Positions 1 through 11,484 of a stretch of 64,000 nucleotides of DNA are shown in pieces. A program made the position numbers and the translations under genes. This DNA is from Dehalococcoidia bacterium (lineage in GTDB: Bacteria > Chloroflexota > Dehalococcoidia > DSTF01 > JACRBR01), in the NCBI GenBank assembly GCA_041494685.1, contig JBGQBE010000001.1, positions 144,286 through 208,285 of the forward strand, given 5' to 3'. Every line of letters begins with the position of its first letter. Position 1 is the first letter of the stretch. A model generated the notes under the pieces. That model had not been told where the DNA came from. It saw nothing but the letters and a program-made list of their open reading frames with translations, and searched no databases.

Positions 1-1967
1 ACGTCGGACCTGTTACCGCTGGGCAGTCCCAACTCCGAATCTTGAAGTGCGGCTCCAACGGCTTCCAAGGCAACGAGGCGTCGCTTTGCTGAACTCGATT
101 GGAGTGCTTCTTCGATGATTCGAAAACGCTCGAACGCGTCTACTTCGGTGGGAGCGAGGAAAGTGAGGAAGAGCGACTTGAACACACCCGTCGCATTGTT
201 TCCAAACTTCTCGTTCTCGGCTTCAGCAAGCCGCAACAATATCCGTGCTGCGTCCTCGAATGTCTCCCTACGTTCGACGAGACGTTCCAGCGCCCAAACA
301 AGATTCCTTCTTCCTGATGTGAAGCCGAGTAGGCGTTCATCTGAGGCAGGAAGCAAGAGTCGTGTAAGAGTCCCCATACCGGCATCCGGTGCACCACTCG
401 ACACCATGAGGAACAGCCGGGAAGTCCGCTCAGAGTCGAGGTCATCTATCGTGCGAAAAGGACCGCCCGGCCCGAGCAAGACCTCCAACGCGTCGCGAAC
501 ACCGGGAACATCTCCGAGTTCGGCCAGGCGCTCGAAGAGCGCAGTCTTGCTCGCCTCATTTGGAAGCTGATCGAGAAGTTCCTCTATTCGGTGTGATTGG
601 CCGCGCCAGACTTCCGCTGCCTGCCACGTGGCAAGCAGTTCAGGAGAGACGTATCGGTATCGTCCTTTGGCTATGACAATGCCCTGTTGTTGGAGCCGGG
701 CTACCAGCATCTGCATGCGGTTCCACTCGATTCCGACAAACCCGGCCACGGCCTGTCCTTCAACGGCAACATCCGCCTCCCACCCGATACGAGTCAGCAG
801 CGACACTCCTCGCAGAGCATCCATTTCGTCTTTGTCGGCGACGATCAGTTTCGAAACGACTTCCTGCACATCGCGGTCGGTCGGCATCGCATTGATTTCG
901 GTCATGCCCCTTGCCAGACAGAAGGCCACCGGCAAGGCGAGCTTTACGTAGCCACGAGTCTTCTCCGCTATCCAGCGAACTTGGCTGTCGTCCAGAAGCG
1001 GTGTCGCAGCCTTCAGCACTCGCTCCATCGCCTTCTCATCCAGAGGGTCGAGGGCATACACGTTCTGACCATGCGGAGCGCCATGTCCCAATGTGATGAG
1101 GCGGAGGCGACCGCCTGCCGCCTCGGCCCATTGCTCGTATTTCTTTGAGTCACCGTCGTCGCACTCATCGACGATGAGCGTAAGCTCGATGTGGGCGTTC
1201 GCTGCGACCCAGTTGAACAGTTCTATTGGTACTTCTTGTCCATACAGGCTCACGCCAGCCAACCCTTGGGCCTTAACTGTTTCAAGCACCAGGCGGGTCT
1301 TCCCCACTCCCGCTTTACCGGTGACTCGCGCATGAGACGTTGTCGGCGCTGCCGAGAACATGGTCCGACTCAGGGCATCGATGGTGGCCTCACGCTGTGG
1401 GTCCGGGTTGAATTGAGTGGCGTGTTCCTCACTTTCGAGAATAACGTCAGCACGCTGGTACCCAAAGATTGGTCTGCCGAGCATGAAGAGTGTTGCTGGA
1501 ACCTTCGTCGCCCATCGTGCTATCTGGTCTGCAAAGAACACACGGACTGGTCCCGTGCATCCCACCGCCATTGCCATCTCTGCAATGGTTTCTCCGCGTG
1601 CGAGTTGTCGATTCGCAGCCATGCTCTGGCCGACGACGAGCGTATAACCTGCACCCTTCTCGAACTGCTCTTGCGCTGCTCGCGCGCCTTCCAGATCCTT
1701 CTTGAACCGGTCGAGGTTTCTCGGCCACCGCTTCTTGAATTGCCAAACCGTAAGCCCATCGAGAACGAACCTTGCCACTGAACCCGGGTTGTCGGTGAAT
1801 GCATCGATGCCCCCGTCGGGGTCATGGATCTTGAGGGTAATCTTCACGCGCTCTGGGGGAATGTGCACCGACATGGCGTCTTCCCAGATGAGCAGGTTGC
1901 ACAGTTCTACTAGCTGCTCTTCGGCAAGCCCGGTGATGTCTTTAGCTACAACCTCGAATGCGGACGC
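1..1967 (-). CDS. Partial (C-terminus beyond the window start) Mrr-like PD-(D/E)xK nuclease fused to a P-loop STAND/AAA-type NTPase with a long helical C-terminal region; Avs/NLR-like antiviral defense candidate
   Basis: My own reverse-complement translation from ATG at 1965-1967 (MASAFEVVAKDITGLAEEQL...) gives an uninterrupted ORF to position 1 (>650 aa). Motifs read in the translation: IHDPDGGIDAF...DGLTVWQFKKRW (Mrr_cat-like DGGID...QxKRW), Walker A TGKAGVGKT, Walker B LTLIVDECDD. The region is ~55-58% GC versus ~70% in the rest of the window. The gene is absent from the ORF track, probably because it is open at the window edge. Confidence 0.6.
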
Positions 1968-2228
1968 CATAGGAGGATTCTACAATGGGAGGGCGTTCCC
2001 TGGATGGCCGCCACGGCGCGAGCGCGCCACGGGCCGTGGTTCGAGCGTACGGCCAACCGCGACGCATGGGGAACAGCGCCGTGCGCCCAGATTAGCGGCG
2101 GGACGAGGAGAGCGCCACCGGGCTGGCTGCCGACGCCGGCGACTCCGGCGCCGCGAGCGCGCGCCAGCGGCAGCCAGCACACGGCAACATGAAACCGGCG
2201 CGTCAGCTCGGCCGGCGCACTGCCCCGT

Positions 2229-3770
2229 TCAGTCGATGCGGTAAAGGATGTAGTACGGCTCGTCGGCGCGGAACGTCTCGGTCAGGTGGAAGCGGGCCGT
2301 CACGGCGTCGTAATAGGCGTCGAAGGCGGGTCCGCCGTTCCCCATGTTGTCCTTCTCGTGCTCAAAGTAGGTGTACAGGTAGTAGACCGGCACGCCGCGC
2401 GCACGCGCCTGGCCTATCCGGTCCACCATGGCTTGCACCCGCTCCGGCGTGTTGCCCGCCGGGAGCGAATAGTCGATCAGGTCCACGTACTGGATCCGGG
2501 GGCTGCTGCCGATGACGCCCCGCGTGCCCGCGCTCACCAGCATGCTCCCGTCTGGTAGGCCCGCGATCACGGGGCGGAGTTGGCGGTACGCGGCCTCGTT
2601 CGACTGGGCGGCGGCGGTGGGCCAGCGGTACAGCATGACGGCATCGACCGCAAACCAGACCAGCGCCAGCAGCGCCATCGCGCCAAGCGCGGCGCGCATC
2701 GCCGTCGCGCCGCGGCGCTCGCGCAAGCCGGGCGCCATGCGCGCGATCGACGCAGGCGCGTGCGCGGCGAGCAGCAGCGCCAGCGCGAGACCCGGCAGCA
2801 TGTATCGCCCGTTCGCAAAGGGCAGCGGCGCGTGTGCGACCGGCCAGACGGCCAGGATGTACGCCGCAGCCAGCAGCAGCGGGCGATTGCGGATCCACAG
2901 CTCGCGCGCGCCAAGCGCCGCGAGGGGCGCGATGATCACACCGCTCGTCATGCCAAGCTCCGCGGCCAGGTAGAAGGGGATGTGCGCGCCGACCGTCGCG
3001 AACGTGATCGGCGCGCCGGTGGCGGTGCCGGTCCAGCCGCCGATGTATGCGAAGATCGCCGAGACGGCCACGAGCACCGCGCCCGCCAGCACCAGCTCGC
3101 GTTGCAGGACGCGGCCGAGCAGCGCACGCGGCGTGAAGGGCGCGCCCCCGCTGGCGCACCAGTAGATCAGCAGCGCCGGAAGCATCGCCGCGTCGGTAGC
3201 GCGGACATTCACGGTTATGCCGAGCATCAGCCCATAGAGGGCGAACCACGCAAGCCCGCGGCCGCGCATCACCGGCACCAGCAAGATGGATGAGATGATC
3301 CAGGTCGTCCCGACGATGTCGAAGAGGCAGTCGCGCGAGAAGTAGACGAACTGCGGCATGATCGCCAGGGCCCCGGCGAACAGCGCGGCCGCGAAACGGT
3401 CGCCGGTCGCCTTCAGCACCAGTGCGTAGGAGAGGGCAATCAGCACGAGCGAAGACCCGATGATCACGACCTGCATCGTGGCCAGGCTTTGCGGCAGGAA
3501 CAGGAAGAACGGCGCCATCGTGGCGGCGACGCCCGGCGGGTACAGGCCCGAGAGCGGAAAGTCGGCCGCCACCAGGCGCCGCGAGGCGGCCAGCTGCTCG
3601 TACGTGTCCGGCGTCCACGTCTGGAGATCGAAGCGCCAGGTCCGCAGCAGCAGCGCCAGCGCGACGATGCCGAGCGGCACGGCCACCGCCCGCGCGATCG
3701 CGGGGACGCCCGCAAGCCAGCCGACCGAAAGGTCAGCCTTGCCAAATCGGCTGTAGGTGAGTTTCGTCAT
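2229..3770 (-). CDS. GT-C fold membrane glycosyltransferase (ArnT/PMT-like, uses a polyprenyl-phosphate-sugar donor) with a C-terminal soluble domain
   Basis: ORF 2229..4019 (-). At least 10 predicted TM helices followed by a soluble C-terminus. Start trimmed to the ATG for MTKLTYSRFGK because the upstream 80 aa are Arg/Pro-rich filler. Confidence 0.7.
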   Translation of the reverse strand: MTKLTYSRFGKADLSVGWLAGVPAIARAVAVPLGIVALALLLRTWRFDLQTWTPDTYEQLAASRRLVAADFPLSGLYPPGVAATMAPFFLFLPQSLATMQVVIIGSSLVLIALSYALVLKATGDRFAAALFAGALAIMPQFVYFSRDCLFDIVGTTWIISSILLVPVMRGRGLAWFALYGLMLGITVNVRATDAAMLPALLIYWCASGGAPFTPRALLGRVLQRELVLAGAVLVAVSAIFAYIGGWTGTATGAPITFATVGAHIPFYLAAELGMTSGVIIAPLAALGARELWIRNRPLLLAAAYILAVWPVAHAPLPFANGRYMLPGLALALLLAAHAPASIARMAPGLRERRGATAMRAALGAMALLALVWFAVDAVMLYRWPTAAAQSNEAAYRQLRPVIAGLPDGSMLVSAGTRGVIGSSPRIQYVDLIDYSLPAGNTPERVQAMVDRIGQARARGVPVYYLYTYFEHEKDNMGNGGPAFDAYYDAVTARFHLTETFRADEPYYILYRID

Positions 3771-3975
3771 CCAGGTGCCCGGAGTGCCGTCAACGCGCGT
3801 CGGTAGAAGTATCGGCAGCGGGCACCCCGCCTCAGAGGCCGCGGGGTCTCGGGAAGCCAAGATCCGGCGACCGTGAAGCTGTTCCGGCGCCGGGGTTAGT
3901 GCCGGCGCAACGGCCACGCAGCGTCGCGGGGCGCGATTCGACCCCACGATGGCCTCGTCGGGTACGCTTCTCCGG

Positions 3976-5124
3976 ATGAAGATCGCCATCGTGTACGACG
4001 CCCTGTTCCCGTACGTCAAAGGCGGCGGCGAACGCCGATACTACGAGCTTGCGCGCCGCCTCAGCGGCCGCCACGACGTGCACATGGTCTCCTGGCACTA
4101 CTGGCCGGGCCCGTCCCGCGCCGTCATCAACGGAATCACGCATCATGGCACCGGACGCCCCCCGGACTTCTACGGCGCGGACGGCCGCCGCCGCATCGCG
4201 GAGGCCGCCGCGTTTGCCGTGCGCGCGCTGCCGGTGCTGCTCCGCGAACGCTTCGACGTTATCGACTGCGCGTCGGTGCCGTTCCTGCCGCTCTTCAGCT
4301 CCGCGCTGGGCGTGCGCGTCCGTGGCGGCAAGCTGGTGGCGACCTGGTTCGAGTACTGGGACGACTACTGGCTGACCTACCGCGGCGGCGCGTCCGGACG
4401 CCTGGCGCGGCTGGCCGAGCGCACGTCCGCGCGGCTCGGCGCGGCGCAGATCGCCATCTCGCAGACGACGGCCGACCGCATGGCCGCGGGCCGGCCGACG
4501 CGCGCGCCGGTCAGCGTGATCGAGCCCGGCGTCGACCTCGACCGCATCCGCGCGGCGCACGCGCCGCCGAAGTCGAGCGACGTCGTCTTCGCCGGGCGCC
4601 TCAACGCGCAGAAGAACGTGTCGCTCTTGCTCGAAGCGGTCGCGCAGGCGGCACGCACGCCTGGCGCGTTCACCTGCACCATCATCGGCGACGGGCCGGA
4701 GCGCGCGCGCCTCGAGGCGCTGGCGCGGCGGCTCGGCGTGGCCGGCCGCGTGATCTTCCTCGGGCGCATCGAGGACGACGCAGCGTACTACTCGGCGATC
4801 AAGTCGGCGCGCGTGTTCGCATGGCCATCCGTCGCCGAAGGGTTCGGTCTCGCCCCGCTCGAGGCGATGGCGTGCGGCGTGCCCCCGGTGGTCGCCGCCT
4901 CCGACTTCAGCGCGACGGAGTCGCTCGTGCGCGACGGCGAGACCGGGCGCGTGGTCCCGGCGGATCCGGCGGCGTTCGCCGCGGCGATCCGCGGGCTGCT
5001 CGGTGACGCGAAGCTGATGCGTACGATGAGCGCGGCCGGGGGCGCCCGGGCGGAGCGATCCGGCTGGGACGCGATGGCGCGCGCCGTGGAGCGCGTCTAC
5101 GTCGAGACGGCCGGACGTGCGTAG
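3976..5124 (+). CDS. Glycosyltransferase family 4 (GT1/GT4 retaining GT)
   Basis: ORF 3949..5124. Start at MKIAIVYD. C-terminal EGFGLAPLEAMACGVPPV motif typical of GT4. Confidence 0.8.
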   Translation: MKIAIVYDALFPYVKGGGERRYYELARRLSGRHDVHMVSWHYWPGPSRAVINGITHHGTGRPPDFYGADGRRRIAEAAAFAVRALPVLLRERFDVIDCASVPFLPLFSSALGVRVRGGKLVATWFEYWDDYWLTYRGGASGRLARLAERTSARLGAAQIAISQTTADRMAAGRPTRAPVSVIEPGVDLDRIRAAHAPPKSSDVVFAGRLNAQKNVSLLLEAVAQAARTPGAFTCTIIGDGPERARLEALARRLGVAGRVIFLGRIEDDAAYYSAIKSARVFAWPSVAEGFGLAPLEAMACGVPPVVAASDFSATESLVRDGETGRVVPADPAAFAAAIRGLLGDAKLMRTMSAAGGARAERSGWDAMARAVERVYVETAGRA

Positions 5125-6146
5125 TCAGGCCGCCCGAGACAGCTCGGCCGCGCCGGGCTCGGCGCCGTGGACGGCGGAGCGCCGCGACAGGTAGACGTAC
5201 GCCGCCACGGCCATCAGCCCCAACGGCAGCATCACCGTCACCCGCACCAGCACCGCGACCGCCGTGCCACGCTCCAGGCCGACGCCGCACCAGCGCAGCA
5301 GCGCCGCCAGCGACCCGTCGCTGGAGCCGAGCCCCAGCGGCAACGGCCACCCGGCGAGCTGTGACACGCCGAACGCCAGCCACGCCTGTCCGAACGTGAT
5401 GCGGCCGCCGTGGACGGCGGCCACCAGCAGCCAGAACTGCAACGCCGCCGCGGCGAAGCTCAACACCGTCAGCAGCGACCATCCCGCGAGCAGACCGCGG
5501 TCCGTCAGCAGCCATCGCAGGCGACCCGCGGCGACCCGGAGCCTCGCCAGCGCGCGACGCACGATGCCGCCTCCAGCGTCTCCGTACGCGGCGGGCCGAT
5601 CCGGGATGAGCGCGCCGGCGATCGGCACCAGCGCGAGCGCTCCGATGGCGGTCGCAGCCACGGCCAGCGCCGCAACCAGCGGCAGCACCACGAATGCCGC
5701 GGCCGCGCACGTGCCCAGCGCCAGCAGCAACGCCGACAACCCGCGTTCGTAGAGGCCCAGCGCAAGGCCGTCCTCCACGGACGCGCCGGCGCGCGACAGC
5801 GCGGCCACGCGAAACAGCTCCCCCGACGACGCCGGAGAGAGCGAGCCCGCCACGCTTCCCAGGATCGCGCTCGCGAACACGAACCCCGCATCGGCGTCGA
5901 TGCCGAGCCGGCGCATCGCCAGCCGTGAGCGAAACGCGAAGAGCAGCGCGATCGCCACGTCGAGCGCGACGACCGCAGCCAGCAGGCGGAGGTTGGCGTG
6001 CGAGACGACGCCGCCCATCGCGGCGGCGTCCGACTTCCACAGCACAAGGGCGAAGAGCGCGACCGCGATGCCAAGCTGCAGCGCCCGGCCGGCGGCCAGG
6101 GCGCGGATGCGCCCGCCTCGCGCCGGTGTGAGCTGCGCGGCCACGC
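5125..6146 (-). CDS. Flippase-like / lysyl-PG-synthase-TM-like (UPF0104) polytopic membrane protein
   Basis: 3' part of ORF 5125..6561. The first 140 codons are an Arg-rich low-complexity artefact; the likely GTG start is ~6141-6147, immediately after the GT2 stop. 8-9 predicted TM helices. Confidence 0.55.
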
Positions 6147-7433
6147 CTACGCCGCCCGACGGTCGCGCGGCAGCGGCACCGGCTCTGCGCGGTCCGGCTC
6201 GGCGGCGCTCGCTGTGCCTTGCACCCCGCGGCGATCTTCCAGCAGGCTCGCGAGCGCGCCGACCAGTCCGACGTTCGCGCCGACGATGATCGACGCCTGG
6301 GCGATCGCCGCCAGGTCCAGCCGGCTGACGCCGGCGAACGCCACGAAGGCGATCGCCACGTTTAGCGCCAGCCCCGCGACGATGAGCACGCTGGCGATCA
6401 CGACGAAAGCCTCCAGACCGAGATAGCGGTGGTAGAAGCGCAGCACGGCGTCCTCGTTCGTGATGCCGCGCGCGGTCGTATAGAGCCGCGATGCGAATCC
6501 CAGCAGGAGCGCGTTCACACCCACGGTCAAGAAGATGCCGCCCGCGAAGACCGGCTGCCACGTCAGGTCTCCCGTCTGGATGCCGTGCGACGGGAGCGCC
6601 ATCGCAAGCGTGATGATGCCGAGCAGCGTCAGCGCAGCGCCCGGCAGCGTGAACAGGTAGTTGGGGCTGGCTAGCAGCAGGAATCGCAGGTGACGCCAGC
6701 CGTCGCGGACGGTGTTGAGCTTCGCCTCGCCGAGGCGCTCACCGTACGGCACCGGGATGTCCGCGACGCGCAGCCCGCGCCGCGCGGCCTTCAGCACCAT
6801 CTCGGACGCAAGCTCCATGCCGTCGGTGCCAAGCTCCAGGCGGTCGAGCGCCTCGCGCGTGAACGCGCGCAGTCCGCACTGGCTGTCGCCGACCTTCAAC
6901 CCCGTGAACACCTTCAGCAGCGCCGAGATCACGGGCGTGCCGATATAGCGGTGGCTCCACGTCATCGCACCCGGAGCGATGCCGCCGGAGAACCGGTTCC
7001 CGATCGACATGTCGTAGCCCTCAGCGAGCGGCGCCGTCAGCGGATCGAGATCGCTGAAGTCGTACGTGTCGTCACAGTCGCCCATGACGAGCCAGTCGCC
7101 GCGCGCCTCGTCGAAGCCGCGGCGCAGCGCCGAACCGTATCCCCGCCGCGACTCATGCACCACGCGCGCGCCCACCGCCGACGCGAGCTGCACCGAGCGG
7201 TCGGTTGAGCCGTTGTCCACGACGATCACCTCGCCCTCGTGGCCGCTGCGCGCGAGCCAGCCGAGCGCCTTCCGCACGCAGGCGACGACCGTCTGCTCCT
7301 CGTCCAGGCATGGCATGACGATCGAGATGTACGGGCGGCGCGCCGTAGCCGGATGCACCGGCGGTAGCCGCGGAATTTGTCGCGCTGAAGCCACTAGGCA
7401 TTGTCCTTCGCTGGCGTCGTGAGGTTCCCGCAT
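6147..7433 (-). CDS. GT2 polyprenyl-phosphate sugar synthase (DPM1/ArnC-like) with a C-terminal 4-TM domain
   Basis: ISIVMPCLDEE...VVDNGSTDRS...DCDDT motifs of GT-A family 2. C-terminal hydrophobic helices. The true start may lie downstream of 7433. Confidence 0.75.
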   Translation of the reverse strand: MREPHDASEGQCLVASARQIPRLPPVHPATARRPYISIVMPCLDEEQTVVACVRKALGWLARSGHEGEVIVVDNGSTDRSVQLASAVGARVVHESRRGYGSALRRGFDEARGDWLVMGDCDDTYDFSDLDPLTAPLAEGYDMSIGNRFSGGIAPGAMTWSHRYIGTPVISALLKVFTGLKVGDSQCGLRAFTREALDRLELGTDGMELASEMVLKAARRGLRVADIPVPYGERLGEAKLNTVRDGWRHLRFLLLASPNYLFTLPGAALTLLGIITLAMALPSHGIQTGDLTWQPVFAGGIFLTVGVNALLLGFASRLYTTARGITNEDAVLRFYHRYLGLEAFVVIASVLIVAGLALNVAIAFVAFAGVSRLDLAAIAQASIIVGANVGLVGALASLLEDRRGVQGTASAAEPDRAEPVPLPRDRRAA

Positions 7434-7686
7434 ATGTATCGACCCGAGTGCCCCGTCCGTGCACCATCAGCTTCGCCCCGCCGCGACAACCGTGCCAGAT
7501 CGTGACCGCGCCGGCACGGCCCGCGTAGCGATCCGGGTGTTAGCACCCGGAGCCAGTATCCGCCGCGCATGGATGATCGCCGGATTGATGCTAGAATCGG
7601 CGCAACGATCGCGCTCACGGATGAGCGCCGCGCGCACGTTGAGGTCAGTGGCCGGCGGCGCCCGCGTGCCAGGCCGGCGGCATGTG

Positions 7687-8415
7687 ATGGAACAACAGCC
7701 CGGCCCCGTCACCAGGCTCGTCGACGCGTGGAAGCGCCGTGGCGCCATCTATGTCGCCTCGTACCTCCTGATGGCGCTGACCTACCCGATCTGGACGCGC
7801 TATCCCGCCCTCGTCGGCCGCGAGCGCACGTTCCTCTTCCACGGCCGCACGATCCCGTACTTCTGGCACCGCTACAACGGCACCTGGGCGAACGAACGCT
7901 CCGTCGAGATCCCGATCGTCCGCCAGATGATCGCGCGCTTTGAGCACGAGACGATGCTCGAGGTGGGGAACGTGCTGTCGCACTACTTCAGCGACCGGCA
8001 CGACGTCGTCGACAAGTACGAGGTGGCGCCGGGCGTAACGAACGTCGACGTCGTCGACTTCGCGCCCGGCAGGTCCTACGACCTCATCGTCAGCATCTCC
8101 ACGCTGGAGCACGTCGGCTGGGACGAGTACCCCCGCGAGGACGGCAAAGCCGTGCGCGCGATCGAGCGTCTGCGCGACTGCCTCAGCGAAGGCGGCCGGT
8201 TGGTCGTCACCCTTCCCGTGGGCCACAACCACGACCTCGACCGCGCGCTGGCCGCGAGCAAGGTGGCGTTCTCCGAGTGCTACTACCTCAAGCGCGTCTC
8301 AGTCCACAACGACTGGGTCGAAGCCGATGCGGCCGCCGCCGAGGGCGCACGATACGACGTGCCCTTCCCCTCCGCCAACGTGCTGCTGGTCGGCGTGATC
8401 ACGCGCGGCGCGTAG
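7687..8415 (+). CDS. Class I SAM-dependent methyltransferase-like protein
   Basis: ORF 7459..8415 trimmed to ATG 7687 (MEQQPGP). LEVGNVLSHYF and DLIVSISTLEHV motifs. Divergent from the GT2 gene. Confidence 0.55.
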   Translation: MEQQPGPVTRLVDAWKRRGAIYVASYLLMALTYPIWTRYPALVGRERTFLFHGRTIPYFWHRYNGTWANERSVEIPIVRQMIARFEHETMLEVGNVLSHYFSDRHDVVDKYEVAPGVTNVDVVDFAPGRSYDLIVSISTLEHVGWDEYPREDGKAVRAIERLRDCLSEGGRLVVTLPVGHNHDLDRALAASKVAFSECYYLKRVSVHNDWVEADAAAAEGARYDVPFPSANVLLVGVITRGA

Positions 8416-8437
8416 GCCGCGCCGTCGGACTTGCCGC

Positions 8438-9115
8438 TCAGCGGCGGGACGACGAGAGCGCCACGGGGCTGGCGTCGGCGACGGGCAGATCCGGCGACAC
8501 CAACGCGCGCCAGCGGCATCCCCCCGGGCAGTACATCTGCACGAAGAAGCTGTCAGCGCCCGCTTGGGCCGCCGCCACGTGCACCACGCCGCCCGACGTC
8601 ACCGCGCCCGACGCCGGATCGCCCGGCCCGGCAGCGGCGCAGATGTGCTGTTCCGGCGGCAGGCCGCGGTCCGAGTCGAGGCACCAGAACCAAGCGCTCT
8701 TGCCCCGCGCCGCTGGCTCCACGTCCACCCGCAGGCGCAGGTCACCGGCCATCATTGGCACGGCGAGCCGGCCGCTGCCGGTCGCGCTGGCGGCGAACGC
8801 CGGCTCCGGCAGCGCGGGCGCGTGCGTGCTCGCGCCGCCCCCGCTGATGAAGTAGGCACTGGTCCCGCAGATCGCCAGGATGACGACCCAGAACGCGCCG
8901 CGTCCGTGGGATGCGGCCCACGCGAGGTGACGCCGCCACGGCGGGAGCGCTCCGGCGCGCTCGCGCGGGAACGGCAGCGGCCGCGTCGGAGGCTCGGCCG
9001 CTTCGGCGTCGGCGCGCAGCGTCAGCAGGCGCTCTTCGAGCGCGTCGAGCGCGGGCGCGAGGCGGCGCGGCTCGGTCGCCGTGCGCGTCTTCTTGGCCGG
9101 GCGAATGATGGCCAT
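8438..9115 (-). CDS. Hypothetical single-pass membrane protein with a Cys-containing extracytoplasmic domain
   Basis: Only the 3' 226 codons of ORF 8438..10111 are retained (MAIIRPAKK...). The upstream part overlaps a bona fide crotonase gene on the + strand. TM helix AFWVVILAICGTSAYFI. CPGGC motif. Confidence 0.45.
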   Translation of the reverse strand: MAIIRPAKKTRTATEPRRLAPALDALEERLLTLRADAEAAEPPTRPLPFPRERAGALPPWRRHLAWAASHGRGAFWVVILAICGTSAYFISGGGASTHAPALPEPAFAASATGSGRLAVPMMAGDLRLRVDVEPAARGKSAWFWCLDSDRGLPPEQHICAAAGPGDPASGAVTSGGVVHVAAAQAGADSFFVQMYCPGGCRWRALVSPDLPVADASPVALSSSRR

Positions 9116-11352: not shown

Positions 11353-11377
11353 AGCAAAGAAAAAGCCCCTACCGCCG

Positions 11378-11432
11378 TTGGTAGGAGCCATCAGCCCTCG
11401 CGGGCAGTCCGGGCGAGCCCCATCGCCCGTAG
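11378..11432 (-). promoter_or_regulatory. Fluoride riboswitch (crcB RNA motif) with terminator-type expression platform
   Basis: Minus-strand RNA GGGCGAUGGGGCUCGCCCGGACUGCCCGCGAGGGCUGAUGGCUCCUACC is near-identical in architecture to the Thermotoga petrophila fluoride aptamer. It is followed by hairpin CCUACCAACGGCGGUAGG plus GGCUUUUUCUUUG immediately 5' of the crcB ATG. Confidence 0.85.
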
Positions 11433-11484
11433 CCGATGCTCCAGTGTAGTGCGGAGCGCCGGCTACGGGCAACGGGTCGCGTCA

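Follow-up and report, generated by a model that had tools for sequence, protein, structure and literature searches.

What does the left edge of this stretch of DNA encode, and how did it come to be there? The window, by which we mean the whole 64,000-nucleotide stretch analysed here, lies on contig JBGQBE010000001.1 (assembly GCA_041494685.1, positions 144,286 to 208,285 of the forward strand) of a Dehalococcoidia bacterium. A sequence-only reading had proposed that its edge holds a truncated antiphage gene of Avs or NLR type, obtained by horizontal transfer. A system of the proposed build is known: PD-lambda-4, since renamed Avs8, has a main protein, Avs8A, made of an Mrr nuclease, a STAND NTPase and a repeat sensor (10.1101/2025.07.02.662641; 10.64898/2026.01.04.697583). 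The ligands of Avs8A are monomeric major capsid proteins of the HK97 fold; after binding them it degrades dsDNA, an activity that depends on ATP, and mutants of its nuclease active site lose defence (10.1101/2025.07.02.662641; 10.64898/2026.01.04.697583). The second gene of the system, Avs8B, is dispensable (10.1101/2025.07.02.662641).

We find that the gene at the window edge encodes a divergent, distant full-length relative of Avs8A, and that a high-GC Chloroflexota bacterium acquired it horizontally as a one-gene insertion. It is thus a new member of an already known immune family. That family was named and mechanistically studied in 2025-2026, which places the novelty of the gene below the estimate of the first reading, and it raises no new question of mechanism: how the protein is built and how it probably works have already been described for Avs proteins.

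Recovery of the whole gene

On the minus strand, a single open frame of 656 codons runs from an ATG at 1970-1968 to position 1, where the window edge cuts it. The sequence-only reading had described a continuous frame of more than 650 residues beginning at 1967; the reverse complement of 1-1967 does translate into 655 codons without a stop, but the actual start is at 1970, and counting from that ATG gives 656. An in-frame TAG at 1982-1980 precedes the ATG, so the gene is cut at its C-terminal end and residues 1-656 lie in the window. The gene is indeed missing from the list of open reading frames, as had been noticed: that mechanical list omits frames that leave the window.

Extension beyond the edge had been proposed as the first check, and it succeeded through a near-identical contig from another assembly (JBGOWU010000008.1 of GCA_041478795.1; L019 below), which is 99.93% identical to window positions 1-8894. 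The intact gene lies at L019:6925-10506 and encodes 1193 residues, so the window (1-1970, minus strand) covers its first 656 codons, or 55% of the gene. Database proteins agree with this extent. One protein from the exhaustive profile search (P0016) agrees with window residues 33-656 at 100% identity, and a cluster mate of it (P0163) is 1193 aa long and has the same N-terminus as the window frame. The nuclease motif described below is often lost in public gene calls: P0016 and a second protein, P0001, both begin downstream of it.

A three-part protein

The protein has three parts: an N-terminal domain of restriction-endonuclease fold, a central STAND P-loop NTPase and a long C-terminus of alpha-helical repeats. 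All coordinates in this section are on the minus strand. The N-terminal part (residues 1-165; 1476-1970) is the candidate effector, a putative restriction-endonuclease-like PD-(D/E)xK nuclease with an Mrr-type D...QxK arrangement. Its putative metal-binding acidic residues, located by translation and conservation, lie in the motif D52-G-G-I-D56 (1803-1817), and the QxK part of the putative active site, located by translation and in the structural model, is Q77-F-K79 on strand beta3 (1734-1742). Across 120 representatives of the clade to which the protein belongs, D56 is kept in every one (120/120), G54 in 119/120 and both D52 and Q77 in 118/120; K79 is kept in 111/120 and is replaced by Arg in 7 more.

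The P-loop nucleotide-binding domain of the STAND NTPase (residues 191-310; 1041-1400) was delimited by a sub-threshold AAA_16 match and by Foldseek. Translation and conservation place its Walker A motif, G218-KAGVG-K224-T225, at 1296-1319 and its Walker B motif, LIV-D268-E269-CDD, at 1155-1178. The Walker A motif is invariant across a 14-sequence alignment, and K224 and D268 are each kept in 118 of the 120 clade representatives, E269 in 107/120. The four motifs quoted in the sequence-only reading, DGGID, QFK, GKAGVGKT and LIVDECDD, are therefore all present at checked positions.

That reading had also assigned about 400 residues after the P-loop domain to helical repeats, and this holds for only part of the region. 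Model secondary structure and conservation in the family assign the first ~135 residues (311-445; 636-1040) to the helical and winged-helix modules of the NTPase, with the conserved motifs GYVKLA and GRYRYVSPxLLA. Sensor repeats make up the remaining ~210 residues (446-656; 3-635), which are all-helical in the model, collinear with Avs8A and marked by a conserved AEAENE..NNATG motif. These are the start of the sensor; its other 537 residues lie beyond the window edge, were read from P0163 and L019, and align with the Avs8A sensor as well.

An AlphaFold2 model of the 656-residue fragment (pLDDT 86.7, pTM 0.74) was compared with the PDB by Foldseek. The top matches were SAMD9, an Avs5 filament, Avs4 (717 columns), Cdc6, Avs3, CED-4 and plant NLR resistosomes, which confirms an NTPase of the STAND/NLR type. 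With Apaf-1/CED-4, plant NLRs and SAMD9 the protein shares the core fold of nucleotide-binding, helical and winged-helix domains; their effectors and sensors are unrelated to those found here, and the likeness, at 9-13% identity, is one of fold only. A PDB search with a sequence profile returned weak P-loop matches only, including a weak one to the P-loop of Apaf-1.

A model of the first 190 residues, built from 66 sequences, has a pLDDT of 91.9 and an alpha-beta-beta-beta-alpha-beta core; D56 is found where strand beta2 starts, and Q77-x-K79 is within beta3 (strand E72-79). Foldseek found no significant match for the isolated nuclease domain, and for this reason the fold assignment of this domain from the predicted structure alone is of moderate confidence. 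The Pfam family Mrr_cat (PF04471), to which the sequence-only reading had likened the motif, has no match at E<=1 in the fragment, in the N-terminal 197 residues, in the full-length protein, or in bona fide Avs8A. What the window protein has in common with Mrr_cat is the restriction-endonuclease fold and the putative catalytic arrangement D...QxK.

The Mrr-type residues could be taken to mean that the protein is a type IV, modification-dependent restriction enzyme fused to an NTPase motor, reading modified DNA rather than a phage protein. We consider this exceedingly improbable. The NTPase, as modelled, has the helical and winged-helix modules of the STAND/NLR type and is no translocase; domain searches detected no reader of DNA modification; and the C-terminus of ~750 residues of helical repeats is homologous to a protein-binding sensor. 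The protein is not a stand-alone restriction enzyme.

Relationship to Avs8A

Among defence families, the only match is PADLOC PD-Lambda-4_A (PDLC03991), which is Avs8A. The window fragment matches this profile with E 4.6e-26 and 88.8 bits (residues 4-646 against profile positions 3-686 of 1283), and the full-length protein with E 3.4e-28 and 95.9 bits (residues 4-965 against 3-1024 of 1283), the alignment ending before the last ~260 profile positions. The PADLOC AVAST models gave no match at E<=1 and NCBIfam gave none. In Pfam, NACHT and NB-ARC did not match the window protein, and AAA_16 alone did so below threshold (25.3 against 32.6 bits, residues 193-306); in relatives, NB-ARC and nSTAND_NTPase5 are likewise below threshold.

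Direct comparisons extend this match over the whole chain. BLASTP aligns the protein collinearly with Vibrio Avs8A (residues 5-646 against 4-683, 23% identity, E 2e-21), the sensor part 446-656 being collinear with Avs8A residues ~480-683. Profile-profile alignment by hhalign of 120 clade members with 7 plasmid-borne Avs8A proteins gave a probability of 100% and E 6e-97 over 1170 of 1193 columns, spanning query 2-1193 and template 1-1268, with a mean confidence of 5-9 per 50-residue block, sensor included. Avs8A proteins (e.g. E. coli ECOR07 WP_000963924.1) have the same order of Mrr-type nuclease, STAND NTPase and long alpha-helical sensor, and the signatures DGG[ILV]D...xQxK and GxxGxGKTR are common to the 7 plasmid proteins and the window protein. 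The window protein thus has the features of the Avs8 type: a nuclease with conserved putative catalytic residues, a STAND P-loop NTPase and a homologous helical sensor. The Avs architecture first recognized by eye, nuclease followed by NTPase and sensor, is borne out by the profile match, the full-length alignment and the resemblance of the NTPase model to Avs3, Avs4 and Avs5.

The distance from Avs8A is nevertheless considerable. Identity is ~19-23%, and the protein scores 89-96 bits on the PADLOC profile against 969 for a bona fide member, the Avs8A of a Vibrio anguillarum plasmid (p292), which matches along the entire model; a Thalassobaculum plasmid protein is intermediate at 370 bits. Members of the window protein's clade score 44-154 bits, and against the 969 bits of the Vibrio protein these scores mark the clade as a distant branch. 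At 1193 aa the protein is ~80-90 aa shorter than Avs8A (1274-1283 aa), its Walker B motif has D-E where Avs8A has D-N, and its host belongs to the Chloroflexota rather than to the Gammaproteobacteria known for Avs8A. The two-gene operon of Avs8 also differs from the present locus, where no Avs8B-like (PD-Lambda-4_B) partner was found downstream in L019. That the present gene would work singly fits the reported dispensability of Avs8B, and for that reason the missing partner is no argument against function.

With Avs4 and Avs3 (PDB 8dgf, 8dgc) there is no match at the level of sequence, and their sensors, with the portal and terminase as known triggers, differ. Could the window protein, then, belong to a separate Avs family that has kept the architecture and an abortive nuclease, while its sensor has diverged to recognize a portal, terminase or tail component and not the HK97 capsid? 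Avs families are defined by the structural cluster of the sensor, and many clades have distinct targets (Lee et al. 2026, 10.64898/2026.01.04.697583). Identity to Avs8A is only about 20%, the PADLOC alignments of clade members are often limited to profile positions ~1-750 (1-1024 for the full-length protein), and hhalign confidence is lowest at sensor residues 951-1100. The same alignment, however, leaves no large block unaligned and keeps the whole sensor collinear; sensor motifs such as AE(A/T)EN...NN are common to the clade and Avs8A; and no other Avs model in PADLOC matches. A separate family is on balance unlikely, though it deserves serious consideration. A similarly modest likelihood attaches to the broader proposal that the large Avs8-like environmental clade of ~1,200-aa proteins is a functionally distinct Avs family, sensing another core phage protein or the capsid folds of little-known phages that infect Chloroflexota and other uncultured phyla. 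If it were, the clade would represent a pattern-recognition specificity not yet assigned, and would give a first way into the study of antiphage STAND immunity in Chloroflexota.

Proposed mode of action

We regard the protein, with good confidence, as a single-chain antiphage receptor of the Avs type, with a nuclease as its effector and a place in the Avs8 (PD-lambda-4A) lineage. By analogy with Avs8A and with Avs3 and Avs4, its helical sensor would bind a conserved phage protein in monomeric form, most plausibly an HK97-fold major capsid protein, and binding would lift autoinhibition. ATP-dependent oligomerisation, probably into a tetramer, would then gather the nuclease domains, which may degrade dsDNA indiscriminately and so abort the infection. 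No partner protein would be required. The HK97-fold capsid protein is the leading candidate for the sensor target, if a tentative one: identity to Avs8A of only ~19-23% and a weak, incomplete PADLOC match mean that the ligand could differ.

Relatives and their surroundings

A word-indexed protein search had returned 14 relatives, as though the family were rare. An exhaustive HMM search overturned this: it found 6429 representatives, and 3163 reach E<=1e-30. At E <= 1e-189 the profile still matches more than 150 clusters made at 50% identity, and among the 150 best matches listed the majority are full-length, at ~1,200 aa. Relatives come from Chloroflexota, Rhodospirillales, Myxococcales, Sorangium, Bdellovibrionales, Nitrospira, Planctomycetes, Parcubacteria, Poribacteria and cyanobacteria, as well as from bacterial and haloarchaeal plasmids, and their GC is often lower than that of their surroundings. 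The capsid-sensing Avs8 lineage is thereby extended far outside the Gammaproteobacteria, into the Chloroflexota and into a large clade, known mostly from metagenomes, whose members neither Pfam nor NCBIfam assigns to a family. No relatives were found in IMG/VR, and hence there is no sign that the gene is phage-borne.

These surroundings bear on whether the protein is an immune protein at all. Many STAND clades are unrelated to defence (10.64898/2026.01.04.697583), Pfam assigns no nuclease domain, and the neighbours in this genome are glycosyltransferase and metabolic genes, all of which would suit a STAND ATPase of regulation or housekeeping signalling, with an N-terminal domain that is merely nuclease-like. 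Elsewhere the neighbourhoods are different. A 49%-identical relative directly follows a type I R-M operon, another adjoins a DISARM-like helicase/DUF1998/PLD cluster with transposases, and plasmid copies of Avs8A adjoin SIR2, toxin-antitoxin, DUF262, Fic and RES genes; further relatives are solitary. Residues of nuclease type are strongly conserved, experiments have proven the nearest characterised family to be an antiphage nuclease, relatives are scattered patchily over the phyla, and the gene is a recent foreign insertion missing from a close relative (below). Together these points make a non-immune STAND NTPase very improbable.

Insertion into a site that is empty in a related genome

The sequence-only reading had noted a fall in GC over exactly this gene, and the numbers agree: GC is 57.7% over 1-1970 and 68.7% in the rest of the window, the former being the lowest of all 1970-nt windows and 4.3 SD under the mean. 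The change falls within ~30 nt of the start codon, and in L019, where both ends can be seen, the low-GC tract coincides with the extent of the gene. GC3 is 0.62 in the gene and 0.85-0.93 in neighbouring genes of the window. In L019 the upstream PMT_2-like gene has a GC3 of 0.90 and the downstream DUF7064 gene 0.98, and both are therefore native.

Horizontal acquisition, proposed from composition, is shown directly by a closely related genome of the Chloroflexota (L026/L027), in which the site is empty: 110 nt separate the PMT_2-like gene from DUF7064, and no gene lies in them. The DUF7064 orthologue there is 94% identical and the flanks are 83-93% identical in DNA. By blastn, a 3,922-bp segment (L019 6723-10644; from window position ~2172 leftwards) stands in place of 36 bp in the related genome, and it carries this gene alone. 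The gene thus combines the two marks of a genomic island, atypical composition and a presence/absence polymorphism at a conserved site. The locus offers a clean natural case in which a single defence gene was acquired and the empty site can be identified.

The remainder of the inserted segment within the window is a non-coding stretch upstream of the gene (1971-2172), delimited by blastn of L019 against L026, by a repeat and by GC. Its GC is 0.69-0.83, the breakpoint of synteny with the related genome lies at ~2172, and an 83-nt copy of the sequence at 8440-8521 is found at 2094-2175. The integrase or tRNA that the sequence-only reading had suggested looking for was not found around the gene, nor were flanking direct repeats of note.

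Here the gene stands by itself, outside any defence island, and is surrounded by genes of envelope and housekeeping function such as those for glycosyltransferases and metabolism. Might it be what is left of a transferred defence gene, inactive or in decay? Its solitude and the want of an obvious promoter speak for this, although the failure to find a sigma-70-like promoter or an intrinsic terminator near the start is uninformative for this phylum; certain relatives are also truncated or IS-interrupted, for example P0002 beside IS21. The state of the gene itself speaks against it. The 1193-codon frame is intact throughout, full-length relatives align with it as far as the conserved acidic tail at the C-terminus, every catalytic motif is intact, and at least two independent assemblies encode the identical protein. 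We therefore consider a remnant very unlikely.

Other features lie near the gene in L019. An HNH gene (L019:13218-13751) was considered as part of the system and rejected: its PtuB-type match is limited to the HNH motif, its GC is native, and it is present at the empty-site locus. The next gene downstream, DUF7064, which is of native GC, also present at the empty site and without a PADLOC match, has its closest named relatives in Chloroflexi/Dehalococcoidia MAGs, which identifies the host as a high-GC member of the Chloroflexota. Beyond DUF7064, outside the window, is a second, separate low-GC insertion of one gene, which encodes a 224-aa membrane protein.

Composition and gene calls of Avs8-like relatives

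Homologues of the Avs8-like nuclease-STAND NTPase-sensor gene in unrelated genomes (loci L001, L005, L010, L011 and L017) repeatedly have a GC content 5-9 points lower than that of the DNA on either side, which is consistent with a family that often moves horizontally. Public calls for its members often take an internal Met as the start, clipping the nuclease domain. The NCBI call for the Avs8-like gene itself, P0016, starts at M33 and so lacks helix alpha1, along with the conserved acidic residue in that helix, and the call for a relative, P0001 / L001:8122-8349, starts inside the WQFK motif, so DGGVD is lost as well; the frame 5' of this called start is open and encodes NEPDGGVDA.

Surroundings of the insertion

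A direct repeat of 83 nt, with copies 82% identical, occurs at window 2094-2175 and 8440-8521. The copy at 2094-2175, which is 5' of the Avs8-like gene and at the synteny breakpoint, is similar to the 3' end of a native gene that lies at a distance of 6.3 kb. It may be the scar of a rearrangement that accompanied insertion. At the other end of the gene, a perfect palindrome of 12+12 nt (GGAGGAACTCAC/GTGAGTTCCTCC) spans the stop codon at L019:10491-10514, outside the window on the near-identical public contig L019, and may form a hairpin or act as a site of recombination.

The insertion adjoins an envelope cluster of glycosyltransferase, LPG-synthase-TM and PMT_2 genes, which is inverted between window 2229-8900 and positions 2476-8946 of L026, the closely related Chloroflexota genome with an empty site, and whose gene content is not the same in both. 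Such differences suggest a variable cell-surface locus.

Past the left edge of the window, L019 carries a second, independent low-GC insertion of one gene (L019:11785-12459, minus strand; GC 0.52, GC3 0.55), where L026 has 12 bp in place of an 876-bp segment. The product of this gene is a protein of 224 aa with a hydrophobic segment at its N-terminus, and its only match, a weak one, is to DUF2299. A small HNH endonuclease gene also outside the window (L019:13218-13751), with weak matches to PtuB/PDC-M01B-type HNH proteins, was considered as part of the insertion and ruled out, because its GC is native and the genome with the empty site has it conserved at the corresponding position.

Elsewhere in the window, a fluoride riboswitch lies on the minus strand at 11375-11436 (Rfam RF01734, 44.8 bits, E 3.7e-9). 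The region of related genomes syntenic with this locus holds crcB and DUF190 genes (L026 22-770).
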